From assembly GCA_050012475.1 (NCBI GenBank), contig JBEKHC010000036.1, positions 1-44,664 on the forward strand: 44,664 bases of DNA, read 5' to 3'. The DNA comes from Candidatus Velthaea sp. GTDB taxonomy: Bacteria; Vulcanimicrobiota; Vulcanimicrobiia; Vulcanimicrobiales; Vulcanimicrobiaceae. Positions 39,001 through 44,664 of the stretch are shown one piece after another. The position numbers are program-made. Position 1 is the stretch's first letter. Each line of letters begins with the position of its first letter.

Positions 39001-42000
39001 TCGCCGCAGGCTGCGATCGGCGGCGCGGCGGGGATAACCGGAGCATGACACACCAGCGGGCAACGTTTTGTCTCCGGCGGTATCGGATGCGCCGGCCTGG
39101 ATCGTTGCCGAAGCGAACACAATTGCGTCGAATGGAATCTCATCGAGCGAACCGGCGAACGCGATCTAGTTCCGCTGGCGCGCGCGTTCGATATGCCGGT
39201 CCCGGCGTGGTCGCCGTTAGCGGGCGGGGTGTTGACCGGCAAATACCGCGGAAACGAACAGGATGCGAGTGACGCCGCTGCAGAGCGCCGACGATAATTC
39301 GGCGCGTTCGGTGCCCGTGCGAAGTGCAACGGCGCAGCGATCAGCACGAACGGCGGACCTTGACACGTGGTGTGTGCCAGGCGTGTGGCTTTGAGCGGTG
39401 ATAGGGTTTGATGAGTGAAGCGCATCGAGCGAGTTCGACTGTATCCGTAAGAACCGGGCGCTGCCCCCGCACAAGTTGCGCTCGCGTGGCTGCCGGCGCA
39501 GGGGCGGGATGTCTTTCCAATTTTAGGCGCAAGGAAGATCGAGCACTTCGAGGACAACCTCGCGGCGCTCGATTTGACGCAGGGCGAACGCCAACAACAA
39601 CGCCGGAACCAGACGAGCGCAGTGCGTGCGGGCTTCCCGCACGAGTTTCTTGCACGTGCCCGGACAATAAACTCCCGGGGAAATTCTTTGGCGTGCCCGT
39701 GGAGTGAATGGACTCACCGCCCACGACGTCTGATCTCGCTCAGCGGAAATCAAGCGAAAGATCGATGGCGACGCATCGCTGTGTGGCGGTCGCTTGCTGA
39801 CGCACGCGACCACGCGCAGCAGCGACGGGCGGGACAAAAGCACCCAAGGAACTGATACGCTCTTCTGAAAGCTGACTGCTGCGGCGTTTCGTGCGTCGCC
39901 GCTTCACGTGTTTGCTGCTAGGAGGCTCCCAATGCGTTTTCGCCTCGCGTTGCTGGTCGTCGTCTGCACGATCTTTGCCCCGTTCGCGGCCGCGTCGGCC
40001 GACGACGCACCGGCGTACTCGATGCCCGTGCGGCCCGATTTTTCAGCGATGAATTTTTTGTTCGGCACGTGGTCGTGCACGACAAAAAGCGCGCGACGGC
40101 CAACGCCCGTCGCATCAACCGACACCTACGAACTGGATCCGACCGGGTATTACGTCAAATACGAATCCAAGAGCGATCCGGTCCCGTGGGCCAACTTTCC
40201 GCAAAGTATCCATCAGATGATCACGTACGATTCGGAACTCAAGCAGTGGGCTGCCGTACTGACCAGCGATACCGGAGACTACGGGCTGTTCATGTCAGCC
40301 GGGTGGAAGGACGGCAAGATGATCTGGCATCCGGTCAACAATACGCCGTATCTGGACATTGCAAGCACCTCGGATTTTACGCTCACGAAAGTCAGCGATA
40401 CGCACACGACGAACGCATCGTCGTTCACGACCAAGTCCGGTGCAACGGTCGCTGTCAGCGGAAGCTGTACCAAGTCGCCGTAGCGCCGCCGGCGCGCGTT
40501 AGCGCGTGAACTTTGCGATGAGCGGCGCGTGCTGTGGATATTGCGCGATCAGCACCGCGCGTGTCGCGAGGTAAAAGTCCGCATACTCGAATCCCGGGGC
40601 AACGTCGCAGCCGACGAGCGCATACCCCGCCGGCTGCTCGACATGAGAAGCGAAGTGCGCGCCGGCCGGTACCGCCGTTTGCCACGGGCCTTCGCCGCGC
40701 AGGATGCGCCGCTCGTGACGGCCGGCTGCATCGATGATGTCTACATTGAGCGGATCGCCGCGATAGAAGTGCCAGATCTCATCGGACGTCAGCCGGTGAA
40801 AGGCCGAGAAATTGTCGGCGGTCAGCAGGAACAGGATCGTGGTGAGCGAGCTGCGGGTCGTGCCGCGCGCCGTGGTGACCCGATCGGCGCTGCGAAACGT
40901 CTCACGAAAAAAGCCCCCTTCGGGGTGCGGCGCCAAACGCAGCTCCGCGATGAGCCGTTCGGCTTCGGCGTTCATGAAAGCCGGCCGGCGGCGCGCACGC
41001 CGCCGCTCACACCAGACCCGTCAGCGGACGTGATCGTTGGTTACCGGTACTTGCGCCAGCTCGTGCATCATGTACGAGAAGTCGTTGAAGGTCAGCGCCT
41101 GTTCGGAATCGCTGAGCGCTTCGGCCGGATTCGGATGGACTTCAACGAGCAGTCCGTGTGCGCCGACGGCCTTGGCCGCGCAGCACAACGGGACGATCCA
41201 GCGTCGCACGCCCACGCCGTGTGACGGGTCGACCATGATCGGCAGATGCGTGCGCTCGCGCAGGACCGGGATGGCTGATAGGTCGAGCGTATTGCGCGTC
41301 GCGGTCTCGAACGTGCGGATCCCGCGTTCGCACAACACGACGTTGGGGTTGCCTTCGGACAGGATGTATTCCGCCGCCGAGAGCAGGTCGTCGATGCTCG
41401 CGGCCATGCCGCGTTTGAGCAAGACCGGCCGATCGGTTCGGCCGACGGCTTTGAGCAGATCGAAGTTTTGCATGTTGCGCGCGCCGATCTGCAGCATGTC
41501 GACGGCGGCGGCCATCCGCTCGACTTGATCGATCGTCATGACCTCGCTGACGATCGGAACGCCGACCGCACGACCGGCTTCGGCCAGCAGGTCCATGCCC
41601 TCCCAGCCCAGGCCTTGGAACGAGTACGGCGACGTCCGGGGTTTGAAGACGCCGCCGCGCAGCATGACGGCGCCGGCTGACCGGACGGCTTCGGCGGTGG
41701 CCAGAATCTGTTCGCGCGTCTCGACGCTGCACGGACCCCCGACGACCACGAAGTGGCCGTCACCGATGGTGACGGGGCCCACGTGGACGCGGGCGGTCCT
41801 GGCGGGGTCGCGGCGGGTGACCTTCCAGCTGTTCTTGGCCGGCGCCGGCGTCTTGGGTGGCGCTTCGTCGACCGTGACCGTCGTGGTCACACGCTCGCGC
41901 GGCGGCGCCGTGGCGGCGTCGTAGCTGCCGATCACGTGCAGGGTGGCGGTGACGCCGCGCAGGGACTGCAAGGCGTTCGCGAAGCGTTCCTCGCGAATGT

Positions 42001-44664
42001 CGCCGTCGACGTCGGCGTAGAAGGCGAACTGATGCTCGGCGCCCAGCCGCGACTTGGAATCGAGCTTGGACACGTTGAGGCCGTTGTCGCCGAAGATCGT
42101 CAGGCAGCGGCCCAGCGCGCCGGGTTGATCGGGGACGGCGAAGACCAGCGAGGTCTTGCGCACCGTGTAGTCCGTCGCCGGCTCGAAGTCGGCGGCGACG
42201 CCGCGTGCGTTGGGCGCGCGGAACAACAGGAAGCGGCTGTAGTTCTCCGGATGGTCGGAGATCGTGTTCGCCAGCTCGACGAGCCCGTAGCGCCGGCCGG
42301 CGTCGCTGGAGGCGATCGCGGCGCGGGTCGGATCCTTGGCGGCGGCCACGTCGCGTGCCGCGATCCCCGTATCGGGGACCGGGACCGCCCGGACGTCGCG
42401 CAGCGTGGCCAAGAAGCGGCCGCATTCGGCCAGCACGACCGGATGCGAATCGATCATCCGCACCCCGGCGAGCGTGGCGCCAGGCACGCCCAAAAGGCGG
42501 TGCTCCATATGCCAGGTGATCTCGGCGAGCGGGTCGAGTTCGTACTCGGCCAGGACGTCGTAGCCCTCGCGGATCGTGCCGGCAATCGCGTTGTCGACCG
42601 GCAGCAGGCCGATGTCGGCCCGGCCTGAGAGTACGGCGTGCACGACGCCACGGTACGTTTGGCAGCCGAGCGGCGTGAACGAGACGCCGCGCCTCCCGGC
42701 GTAGGCATCGAGGACAAGGTGCGAATACGAACCCTCGATCCCCTCGAAGGCAGCGGTCAGCGTGAGTGTGGGGGTGGGGATGGCCTCGGCGTCGGTTTGG
42801 TTACTCATAGCCTCGTTCACTACAAAAAAAGAGCCCCGCGCGCTTGCGGCGAGCGGGGCTCTTGGTGGTCGTCCATGGTTTGCGAGGGACTCTTACCGCG
42901 ATAGCCTACCGCACCGGCGCGCTGTGGTGTCGGCGAAAAAAAAGAACGGAAATCGCTGCGTCAGAGCCTGTTTGACCATGCCCTAAGCATGTACCACGTT
43001 CAGGAGCCACTCGTCAACAGCGCCGAAGTTCCGCAAGGGGCGGCTATCTACCCCCAGCGTCGCCGGCGTCGCGCGTGCCGGGCCGAAACGGGTGGAGCCC
43101 GCCGCATCTCGGATCCGCCGAAGTCGCAGCGTGTCGAGCGCCGGGGCGCCCATCGACCGAAGCCGAGGTTACCCATCCTGGCGAAGCTGAGGGCGCCCAT
43201 CCGAACGAAGACCGAGGGCGCCCATCCGAGCGAAGACCGAGGGCGCCCATCCTGTAGGCGTTGGTCCGACAGGTCGGACCAGCGCTAGTTGGCCGCTCGG
43301 CGCTCCGCGATGTAGGACTGGCTGAAGAACAGCGGCGAGGAGATCAGGAAGTCGGCCGAGCTGCGGTTGCATGCGATCGGGACGTTGTGGAGGACGGCCA
43401 GGCGCAGCAGCGACTTCACGTCGACGTCGTGCGGCTGCGATGAGAGCGGGTCCCAGAAGAAGATGACCGCGTCGAGCTTGCCTTCGGAGATCATGGCGCC
43501 GACTTGGGCATCGCCGCCGCGCGGCCCCGAGAGCAGACGTTCGACCGGTAGATCGACGAGGTCGGACACGCGTTTCCCCGTCGTCGCCGTTCCGAAGAGC
43601 GCGCAGCGCGAGAGCGTGCCGCGATTGAATGTCGCCCATTGCGCGATCTCGTCTTTGCACGCGTCGTGCGCGATCAAGACGATGCGCGGGCGAACCTCGT
43701 CGCGGGTTTTGATTGGTGTGACGTTACTGGTCATATGCCAATCTTACGGCCATGACCGGCGCGGTGTTCCGATGATTGTCGAAACTTAATCTCTTTTGAC
43801 GCCAATGTTTCAGTGCCGTCGGCGGTAGTATCCACGCAGATGCGCGGCGCATTGCCGGAGATTTTCTCGCGCTACTTTCGTGGGAACACCCGCGTCTGCG
43901 ATGCATCGTTATCGAAAAACTCTGTAATAACCGGCGTTTGCGCGCCGCTCGCCACCATCGCCAGGCTGAGATTTGCGGTCAATGTAGCCGCCATTCTCAT
44001 CGGTGACGGAAACCAAGTAGCGCGCAACGAGGTATTTAAATTTTCTTGCGCGGATCACTACCGCGAGCAGTTCGAACTTGCAAGATCGAAATGACGCCTT
44101 GCCGCACCGGGAGTAACGGGCAATCTTCGGGTCGCCTCGGCTACCAAGCGTCCGCTGATTTCAGCGCGGCACGGCAACGGCCGGATATTGCGCGGTTGAA
44201 ACTCGTCCCCGGCGGCCGGGTAGACGCACGCGTGAGGATGCTTGGTCTCGCGCTGGCATGGCGCAAAACCGCGACACGAGCCTTCGGGGCGCTCATTGAC
44301 GGGCGGGTGCCGCTTCATTTGAAGCTGTTCGCCGTGGCGGCGAGCGTCTTCGTTTTGTCGCCGCTGAATCTGTTGGGCGATATCCCGCTGTTGGGGACCA
44401 TCGACGATGCCGGGTTGCTCACGCTGGTGATGCTCTGGTTCACGCGCGCGAGCACGCCGTATCAAAATACGATCGACATCTGAGGGCCGGTCAATCGATC
44501 GGCCGGAGTCCGAGGCGATTGGGACCGACCTGCCAAGCATCGGCGAGCACCATGCGCAAAAGGCCGTCGATACCCGGCTTCGCCTTGCGCCGGTCGGTGC
44601 GCCGGCGTTCGTGGTGCACGGCCGCCATGATGCGCCGGCGCGGTCCGAAGCGGCGCTGCGGGTT

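Follow-up and report, generated by a model that had tools for sequence, protein, structure and literature searches.

A prephenate dehydratase-ACT module fused to the type I-beta DAHP synthase of Candidatus Velthaea is probably a former enzyme turned feedback sensor

Introduction

The type I-beta DAHP synthase (DAH7PS) is a model for allostery evolving by domain swapping, and the regulatory modules that we found described for it are an ACT-like domain and a chorismate mutase (CM) at either end. In the CM-DAH7PS of Geobacillus, Bacillus and Listeria (5j6f, 3nvt), a type I-beta barrel carries an enzyme of the downstream pathway at its N-terminus. According to an excerpt of PMC8408635, the fused CM of the Geobacillus type mainly gates, and catalysis falls to another, stand-alone enzyme. 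The Thermotoga maritima enzyme (1rzm, 3pg9) possesses an ACT-type domain directly before its linker and barrel. In Shewanella, Song et al. (2005, PMC1173090) noted an AroQ-PheA whose fused aroA(I-beta) partner is a pseudogene. Intact four-domain proteins composed of CM, prephenate dehydratase (PDT), ACT and DAH7PS occur in Actinomycetota, Acidobacteriota and Agarivorans. In databases, PDT/DAH7PS fusions are widespread across many phyla. Full-text searches, in a collection that covers few subscription journals, turned up no biochemical work on a PDT-DAH7PS fusion. As for transcriptional control, pheL-pheA of E. coli (PMC3082878) and aroR-aroF of Corynebacterium glutamicum (PMC11802643) each place a short ORF in which aromatic codons abound, with a terminator behind it, ahead of an aromatic-pathway gene.

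We analysed a window of 44,664 nucleotides from the soil bacterium Candidatus Velthaea sp. (phylum Vulcanimicrobiota, family Vulcanimicrobiaceae), in which one gene encodes PDT, ACT, a linker and a type I-beta DAH7PS. The domain order is that of the Shewanella and four-domain proteins. Since PDT and DAH7PS fusions are widespread and one had been noted in Shewanella, the novelty implied by a first-pass annotation was overstated, and the arrangement is not unique to this lineage. As in the Geobacillus type, a downstream-pathway enzyme precedes the barrel, but the module is a PDT-ACT of about 280 aa with two possible ligand sites instead of an AroQ. As in Thermotoga, an ACT domain leads into linker and barrel; it is, however, of the PheA type (PF01842) rather than PF18152, is still joined to a PDT, and is followed by about 25 extra linker residues. 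Compared with Shewanella the situation is reversed, with no CM, an intact barrel and a drifted PDT site. The four-domain forms keep the canonical Gln at the position of E. coli PheA Q215, whereas the fusion has Glu. Monofunctional PheA-ACT (Chlorobium tepidum 2qmx) and the E. coli P-protein have the fold of the fused module (target-normalised TM 0.85) and most of its motifs; the module differs by Gln-to-Glu and Thr-to-Ser changes at catalytic positions, by DSKS in place of ESRP, and by its C-terminal DAH7PS. Here, we propose that the fused PDT is probably no longer an enzyme and now serves as a feedback sensor.

Results

The fusion gene (41021..42808, minus strand) is a single ORF of 595 aa that runs without interruption from an ATG at 42808 to a TGA at 41021. 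Pfam recognized PDT at residues 20-198 (E 2e-41), ACT at 220-284 (27.4 bits against a cut-off of 27) and DAHP_synth_1 at 345-583 (E 2e-79), so the first-pass report of a whole PDT-ACT module ahead of a type I-beta DAHP synthase holds. All features of the gene lie on the minus strand. The PDT catalytic-type domain (aa 20-198, 42215..42751) was aligned to E. coli PheA, and the ACT domain, delimited by Pfam, alignment and AF2, covers about aa 217-297 (41918..42160). Both PDT fold and ACT were present by Pfam, AF2 and fold match. Alignments and AF2 place a Pro-rich linker at about aa 298-334 (41807..41917), which is long, variable and the least conserved part of the protein, and whose stretch from about aa 323 onwards aligns to the segment ahead of the barrel in PRK08673. 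The barrel, defined by alignments and fold match, spans aa 335-587 (41048..41806), and 1rzm was the top fold match of the protein. In the AF2 monomer (pLDDT 89, pTM 0.55), the relative placement of the two modules was not fixed. An assembly artefact or read-through was ruled out, as both domains were found in every one of the best 120 of 7998 scored homologues (69-92% identity).

This is also the only DAHP synthase that was found in the genome (one PF00793 match and no class II match by PF01474), a statement limited to "only one found" because the genome is 93.8% complete. Of the genomes compared, G000, G001, G003 and G016 have a sole DAHP synthase, and a second match is present in G004, G006, G010, G012, G019 and G021. 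The stand-alone PDT noted earlier was recovered on contig C104 with its TRF motif, and phenylalanine would be made by this separate pheA. The CM of this genome is AroH, and AroQ was not found in the genome. In G000, aroH adjoins tyrA, and the equivalent in G013 is aroH-aroF-tyrA.

Next, we examined the class of the barrel. Profile cut-offs, motif and residues class the fusion protein as a type I-beta DAH7PS. It passed TIGR01361 (369.6 bits against 267.75) and PRK08673 (411.4 against 335), and KDO8PS models scored far under their cut-offs on it. The KPRTS motif, not the KDO8PS motif, was found in all 121 close relatives, in which C360, K389, R391, R444, K465, R495, H530, E556 and D567 are invariant; the metal and substrate residues are identical in alignments to 4grs, 1zco and 1vs1. 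We take C360, H530, E556 and D567 to be metal ligands, and K389, R391, R444, K465 and R495 to be the basic residues that bind PEP and E4P.

Residues N160, S208, Q215 and T278 of E. coli PheA are said to matter for catalysis, as Zhang et al. reportedly found in 2000; the corresponding positions of the fused PDT read N73, S121, E128 and S191. At the Q215 position, Glu is found in all 121 close fusions, all 66 family loci and 26 of 27 aligned clade members; Gln occupies it in all 17 native stand-alone PDTs and in 59 of 60 other PDTs (76 of 77 together). The S208 and T278 positions drift too in the CM-less fusion clade. The NCBIfam PheA equivalog cut-offs were not reached (PRK11898, 161 against 219 bits; PRK11899, 177 against 359). 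The SRF noted earlier in place of TRF, at residues 191-193, was confirmed, and the TRF triad is called critical in prephenate dehydratase in an excerpt of PMC13217925. As a sign of a dead enzyme, SRF is nevertheless insufficient: it occurs in only 7 of the 121 close relatives and also in 2 of 60 other PDTs. With TRF kept in 112 of 121, the change is conservative and local.

The fused PDT is not decaying, and its cleft is under strong purifying selection. Little or no variation is seen at N73, H122, D146-T147 and R192-F193. Within the genus, dN/dS of the fused PDT was 0.06-0.10, compared with 0.10-0.14 for the stand-alone PDT; it was 0.03-0.16 in ten other pairs, and in 7 of 10 pairs ACT was under weaker constraint than the catalytic domain. 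Such constraint is as compatible with catalysis as with binding. In the ACT domain, GAL (230-232) and N245 are kept, and the ESRP position reads DSKS (250-253). GALV and ESRP are given as motifs of the Phe-binding PheA-type ACT in the excerpts of PMC13217925 and PMC10845154. Of the 121 close relatives, 117 have GAL and all have the Ser of ESRP, but 118 read DSK-x at that motif, which leaves Phe binding at ACT uncertain. Native stand-alone PDTs deviate at ESRP as well (V/L-SRP).

We then surveyed 151 family genomes. The fusion does occur in part of the family, with a fusion-clade PDT-ACT in 70 of 151 genomes (a few loci broken by contig ends included), but the "8 of 13" given in the first-pass annotation was not reproduced. 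A native DAH7PS regulated by PF18152 (ACT-like) was found in 17 of 151; it forms a clade separate from the fusion, by which it appears to have been replaced. No genome carries both, against about 8 expected (Fisher p 1e-5, kinship uncorrected), suggesting that the two fill the same regulated role. Of the 16 genomes in this genome's subclade, 15 retain a canonical PDT, as do 4 of 4 Myxococcota-type fusion genomes, and in five loci (G021, G045, G106, G128, G155) a canonical pheA follows the fusion at about 3 kb or less on the same strand. The fused PDT is the sole PDT found in 26 of 70 fusion genomes, nine of which were confirmed with the Pfam model; two of the 26 (G012 and G132) are single contigs that keep tyrA. 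No PDT match at all was obtained in 57 of 151 family genomes, indicating that PDT loss is tolerated in the family. Stand-alone pheA accompanies the fusion less often (43 of 70 genomes) than it does the native regulated DAH7PS (14 of 17), a difference short of significance (p 0.16). A commoner retention of pheA with the fusion (43-44 of 70 versus 24 of 81) was dropped as an argument, because neither a regulated DAH7PS nor pheA is present in most non-fusion genomes; the fair comparison, with 14 of 17, gives no excess.

In unrooted trees, both halves of the fusion group with Myxococcota fusions and not with native genes. AU tests against grouping with native genes gave p 0.0002 for DAH7PS and p 0.0004 for PDT, on quick LG+G4 trees of 40 and 42 chosen rows, and an origin from the genome's own aroF and pheA was rejected on these tests. 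The gene may have passed into or out of the family by lateral exchange with Myxococcota-type lineages, and would then have displaced the native ACT-like-regulated DAH7PS. Nested within the fusion clade, G031 carries a bare barrel behind the same kind of leader as the fusions.

This leader was absent from the first-pass annotation. On the minus strand ahead of the fusion gene, an ORF of 28 codons (42893..42979) contains five Phe codons at 42952-42935. Equivalents were found in 55 of 65 family fusion loci versus 2 of 70 unfused control loci under a similar filter. A putative sigma-70-type promoter (42988..43017), composed of a TTGAC box followed by TG and a -10-like box, lies about 8 nt upstream of the leader ORF, and the transcript would then be nearly leaderless; in all 17 leaders TTGAC stands 37-44 nt ahead of the first codon. 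Downstream, folding predicts an intrinsic-terminator-like hairpin (42824..42863, about -27 kcal/mol) with T7 behind it, 15 nt ahead of the start codon, and such hairpins (-15 to -29 kcal/mol, with U-rich tails) were present in all 17 loci examined. A predicted antiterminator strand (42903..42920) pairs with the 5' arm and loop of the terminator. Its duplex (-14 to -29 kcal/mol in 17 of 17) was better than shuffles at the 5% level in 6 of 17 loci, this copy, matched by 20% of shuffles, not being one of them. A strict promoter and terminator scan upstream of the gene matched neither element, the fold of the whole leader did not stand out from shuffles (z -1.37), and no Rfam family reached gathering level on the leader region. 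The contrast in folding between stalled and at-stop states was discounted as evidence, since the longer stalled sequence partly favours that state. At contig level, four metatranscriptome runs from a single study (shares 0.07-0.26) gave short pieces on the gene, from which start, end and level were not readable. These features point to a putative ribosome-sensing attenuator of aromatic amino acids, which would place the fusion gene under additional control.

Summed over 56 family leaders, the codons are 179 Tyr, 109 Phe and 48 Trp. In contrast to pheL-pheA and aroR-aroF, the family leader mixes the three kinds, and its number of Phe codons tracks whether the genome has a separate pheA. A drop in Phe codons without pheA had been predicted before the held-out leaders were fetched. 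Among held-out genomes with a leader, all 10 fusion-only genomes had 0-1 Phe codons (seven had none), whereas all 26 that keep pheA had at least one and 19 of these at least two (Fisher p 8e-5). A test on 8 independent pairs gave a median p of 0.031 for "at most 1 Phe" (range 0.016 to 0.22), and significance was not reached for "zero Phe" (p 0.25). The loss of leader Phe codons where canonical pheA is absent suggests that the fused PDT does not supply Phe.

Finally, we docked the barrel on the PDT-ACT dimer. The predicted score was 0.52 versus 0.01 for the best control, with one of three runs at 0.02; the runs agreed in at least 77% of contacts, and partner pLDDT was at least 86. In calibration, this score range held only 18 of 157 solved complexes, plus both of the 2 mismatches (of 215) that passed. 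The model is weakly supportive of gating.

Discussion

It is fairly probable that the fusion works as an active type I-beta DAH7PS and that its PDT-ACT portion is mainly an allosteric regulator, with little or no prephenate dehydratase activity. By analogy to the Geobacillus and Thermotoga enzymes, the barrels would form a tetramer, the PDT-ACT modules would pair, and ligand would close the modules over the active sites. In the altered PDT cleft the ligand would most likely be prephenate, and at the ACT interface an aromatic amino acid; either site or both may be used, and prephenate, Tyr and Phe may all be candidates. The "mainly a sensor" proposal of the first-pass annotation thus survives on the Glu at the Q215 position, the exclusion of native DAH7PS, the pheA in the same operon and the leader Phe codons, and its SRF argument is weak given the rarity of SRF among close relatives. 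Its statement that the gene joins the first shikimate step to the last phenylalanine step is probably untrue in the catalytic sense. Against the sensor stand the sole-PDT genomes, the widespread TRF, the constraint on the cleft and GqqA, a diverged PDT homologue that, according to an excerpt of PMC8192741, still complements a pheA mutant.

One alternative is a true bifunctional enzyme, whose fused PDT converts prephenate usefully and whose two halves are both inhibited when Phe occupies ACT. Its cleft residues are nearly invariant, its catalytic domain is mostly more constrained than its ACT, it is the only PDT found in some fusion genomes, the single-contig G012 and G132 among them, and its four-domain relative is the sole PDT in one Actinomycetota genome. 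We nevertheless regard this as unlikely, because the Gln-to-Glu change is fixed in the fusion clade, the leaders of fusion-only genomes lose their Phe codons, the family tolerates PDT loss, and five loci keep a second pheA right behind the fusion. The same new acidic residue, invariant within a strongly conserved cleft, could instead mark a specificity change, with the cleft moved to another reaction or substrate as in an arogenate dehydratase or a GqqA-like hydrolase; GqqA (7am0) is a PDT-fold protein with a known second activity. However, an arogenate route to Phe would need the very leader codons that fusion-only genomes have lost, and gene neighbourhoods give no pointer to another pathway, which leaves such a shift highly improbable. 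Nor does it seem at all probable that PDT-ACT persists because it helps the barrel to fold, assemble or stay soluble, with control being transcriptional only, via the attenuator. The bare barrel of G031 demonstrates that a barrel can exist without the module, behind a leader of the same kind, and the long, variable linker fits such a role, but the invariant residues of cleft and ACT include the pocket and not just the core, and mutual exclusion is with a DAH7PS that is allosterically regulated.

Returning to the sensor, we tentatively suggest, as a reading rather less likely than not, that the retired PDT senses prephenate or Tyr through its cleft with the fixed Gln-to-Glu change and gates the barrel, with a possible second input at ACT; it would be kept even in genomes seemingly unable to make Phe, and the attenuator codons would be retuned gene by gene to the remaining branches. 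Phe feedback would harm such genomes. If PDT-ACT has lost catalysis, it adds a new, naturally abundant module with two candidate ligand sites, and leader codons set against pathway content offer a cheap genomic readout of whether a fused domain still functions. Genomes with only the fused PDT copy may be Phe auxotrophs, with consequences for annotation. Among listed homologues, fusion genes often carry the label chorismate mutase/prephenate dehydratase.

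The fusion gene and its genome

The fusion gene is an unbroken 595-aa ORF on the minus strand (window 42808-41021). Pfam places PDT at residues 20-198, ACT at 220-284 and DAHP_synth_1 at 345-583, in agreement with the first-pass annotation, which described a full PDT-ACT module N-terminal to a DAHP synthase (DAH7PS). The barrel scores above the type I-beta NCBIfam cut-offs, and the PDT part under those of the PheA equivalogs. A profile search of the genome (93.8% complete) returned a single PF00793 match and neither a class II DAH7PS nor an AroQ, consistent with its annotation as the only DAHP synthase. 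One AroH lies immediately ahead of tyrA on contig C31, and the stand-alone PDT noted earlier was located on contig C104. AlphaFold2 predicted that both modules are well folded (pLDDT 89), with their relative placement not fixed (pTM 0.55). Homologues and loci with assigned names put the genome in Vulcanimicrobiota (Eremiobacterota). The top fold matches were the DAH7PS of Thermotoga, Aeropyrum and Geobacillus and a Chlorobium PDT; no solved chain among the fold and structure matches spanned both halves.

On the same strand, a Cupin_5 gene (window 40499-40975; also in genome G001) lies 45 nt downstream, and methylglyoxal synthase (mgsA, window 43285-43734) lies upstream; for neither neighbour was a connection to the aromatic pathway seen. 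Elsewhere in the window, inspection by eye suggested CDGSH-type iron-sulfur motifs with ferredoxin-like and truncated-globin-like parts in a 675-aa ORF (33443-35470), and an apparent degenerate second copy of the C-terminal part of a dUTPase following that gene (36622-37537).

Distribution of PDT-DAH7PS fusions

Both domains were present in all 120 listed homologues (the best 120 of 7998 scored). Examination of 80 genome loci gave 20 intact PDT-then-DAH7PS fusions, 3 split between frames and 2 in reverse order, with hosts in Vulcanimicrobiota, Myxococcota, Actinomycetota, Acidobacteriota and Spirochaetota. Many of the 52 representatives chosen for domain scanning among 150 listed matches were CM-PDT-ACT-DAH7PS (CM, chorismate mutase), and others PDT-DAH7PS, FXD-DAH7PS-PDT or PDT-DAH7PS-CM. 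ESM Atlas clusters with both families came mainly from Gemmatimonadota, Spirochaetota, Acidobacteriota, Pseudomonadota and Planctomycetota. Song et al. 2005 (PMC1173090) noted that in Shewanella an aroQ-pheA gene is joined to a pseudogene of aroA(I-beta). The earlier searches had listed no such fusion; given this spread and the domain order in that paper, the novelty implied there is overstated.

The domain combination is thus not new: databases and one paper already contain the PDT-ACT-DAH7PS order, and gating of DAH7PS by a fused pathway enzyme is an established principle. Full-text literature searches, with most subscription journals outside their coverage, turned up no work on a PDT-DAH7PS fusion. 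Specific here are a CM-less clade and its residue state. This analysis adds that clade with its fixed change at a catalytic position, the fusion's exclusion with the native regulated DAH7PS, and a test of PDT function by leader Phe codons.

Representatives P0148, P0149, P0151, P0153, P0156, P0158, P0172, P0193, P0205 and P0212 are further DAH7PS fusions: four-domain forms with PDT shortened or ACT missing, PDT-DAH7PS-CM, DAH7PS-anthranilate synthase and DAH7PS-TyrA. At loci L095, L098, L103 and L105, one directly after rluB, the native DAH7PS is ~290 aa without a regulatory domain; several fusion genomes have second DAH7PS matches resembling this type.

Catalytic residues of the fused PDT

The fused PDT had been proposed to be mainly a sensor because of its SRF triad. 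The triad of close fusions is TRF in 112 of 121, SRF in 7 and THF in 2, so SRF by itself says little about loss of PDT activity. By alignment, fusion residues N73, S121, E128 and S191 correspond to N160, S208, Q215 and T278 of E. coli PheA, which Zhang et al. in 2000 reportedly found to matter for catalysis. The Q215 position holds Glu in 121/121 close fusions, 66/66 family loci and 26 of 27 clade members, and Gln in 17/17 native PDTs and 59 of 60 other PDTs. A sister subclade carries Ala at the S208 position (48/66 loci) and mostly Ser at the T278 position. The accessible text of PMC13217925 confirms the TRF, GALV and ESRP motifs only.

Strong purifying selection on the fused PDT domain (dN/dS) indicates that its cleft still does something. 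Within the window's subclade, 15 of 16 genomes retain a canonical PDT, as do all 4 Myxococcota-type fusion genomes; at five loci it lies just 3' of the fusion. Counting against loss of activity, the fused copy is the sole PDT found in 26 of 70 fusion genomes, and a diverged PDT can remain active, as the available part of PMC8192741 reports for GqqA. No PDT match was present in 57 of 151 family genomes or in any of 11 genomes of a sister family, single-contig ones included, a pattern that suggests that many of these bacteria are Phe auxotrophs or make Phe in some other way.

Leader and predicted attenuator upstream

The first-pass annotation missed a putative attenuator ahead of the fusion gene, on the minus strand. 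It consists of a 28-codon leader ORF with five Phe codons (window 42979-42893), a TTGAC box as putative promoter element 38 nt ahead of the leader ORF start, and a GC hairpin followed by T7 (42863-42824) between leader ORF and fusion gene. Equivalent leaders precede 55 of 65 family fusion loci (genome G113 left out as ambiguous), and similar ones 2 of 70 unfused control loci; none was found ahead of 4 Myxococcota-type or 9 testable Actinomycetota fusions. Terminators were present in all 17 leaders examined, and a predicted antiterminator was plausible, better than shuffles in only 6 of the 17. Known leaders of this type, according to the accessible parts of the sources, are pheL (PMC3082878) and aroR ahead of aroF in C. 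glutamicum (PMC11802643). Judged from sequence, the attenuator probably tunes transcription of the fusion gene, reading Phe only in the window's genome.

The Phe codons at window 42935-42952 give eight consecutive T, which may be slippery for the ribosome; frameshifting is known in E. coli pheL, at a motif other than a T8 run (PMC3082878). Between mgsA and the promoter, a ~25-bp repeat occurs three times (window 43189-43254). Its 14-nt core has 14 copies spread over 7 contigs, frequently grouped in threes at a spacing of 24-25 nt, and the repeat has partly matching RNA contigs in all four metatranscriptomes; it may be a REP-like element. At control loci L071 and L081, Phe/Tyr-rich leader ORFs lie ahead of clostridial DAH7PS genes.

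Leader Phe codons and PDT function

If the fused PDT makes Phe, fusion-only genomes, meaning those 85-97% complete in which no second PDT match was found, should retain leader Phe codons. They seemed not to in the first 19 loci; the prediction was fixed at that point, before 47 further loci were fetched, of which 46 were scored and 36 had a leader. In these held-out loci, the aromatic core had 0-1 Phe codons in 10/10 fusion-only genomes (zero in seven) and 1-6 in 26/26 pheA-keeping genomes (at least 2 in 19; Fisher p 8e-5). Over all 55 leaders, zero-Phe cases were 10 of 16 fusion-only versus 0 of 39 pheA-keeping. Leader Tyr content was alike in both groups (p 0.57), and fusion-only genomes had a little more Trp (p 0.003). 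With a threshold of at most one Phe codon, 8 independent pairs on a 54-row tree gave a median p of 0.031 (range 0.016-0.22); with zero Phe, p was 0.25, so kin-corrected support for the association is modest. Nine of ten leaderless loci are fusion-only, mostly from one genus. The proposed sensor role is favoured less by SRF than by the Glu at the Q215 position, the retained pheA and this loss of leader Phe codons.

Proposed mechanism and ligand

The most likely reading, with moderate confidence, is that DAH7P is made by the barrel under the control of the PDT-ACT module. The fusion is likened to the Geobacillus DAH7PS, whose N-terminal chorismate mutase regulates the barrel, with PDT-ACT as the regulator; there, according to PMC8408635, most of the catalysis falls to a separate AroH. 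By analogy, the barrels would form a tetramer with two PDT-ACT dimers, which would close upon ligand binding. When a single barrel was docked computationally onto a PDT-ACT dimer, the score was 0.52 versus 0.01 for the best control (runs 0.02, 0.54 and 0.52; contact agreement at least 77%, partner pLDDT at least 86), which is weak support; this score range also included 18 of the 157 solved complexes used for calibration and both of the mismatches that passed (2/215).

Prephenate in the PDT cleft is our tentative guess for the main ligand, followed by Tyr and, slightly behind it, Phe at the ACT domain; each is less likely than not. The module is conserved in genomes with tyrA and no other PDT, and Phe is doubted because imported Phe would there stop the production of Tyr and Trp; a second DAH7PS is present in some of these genomes.

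Origin and probable replacement of the native DAH7PS

In unrooted trees of both domains, the Vulcanimicrobiota fusions cluster with Myxococcota-type fusions that lack CM, and the native enzymes of the family stand separately. Quick trees of 40- and 42-row subsets rejected a grouping of fused with native sequences (p-AU 0.0002 for the barrel and 0.0004 for PDT). Across 151 family genomes, where kin are not independent, the fusion-clade PDT-ACT occurs in 70, the native PF18152-regulated DAH7PS in 17 and both in 0. Gene order is rluB-aroH-aroF-tyrA in genome G013, and in G000 aroH adjoins tyrA. From this 0/151 co-occurrence and gene order we infer that the native regulated DAH7PS was replaced in its role by the fusion.

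Unpublished genomes (G011, G022, G024, G036, G046, G065, G130 and G144) are included in the family tallies of second DAHP synthase matches, PDT and native DAH7PS. G022 is also in the 17-leader terminator set and the PDT residue table, G011 in the native PDT set, and G011, G022 and G024 in the domain trees; the leader test, dN/dS and AU tests use none.

At locus L092 (genome G031, contig C26), aroH-tyrA is preceded by a DAH7PS that consists of the barrel alone and nests within the fusion clade, at the head of the gene group. It has the same kind of leader, with no Phe codons, in a genome without a PDT match, and looks like a secondary loss of PDT-ACT.
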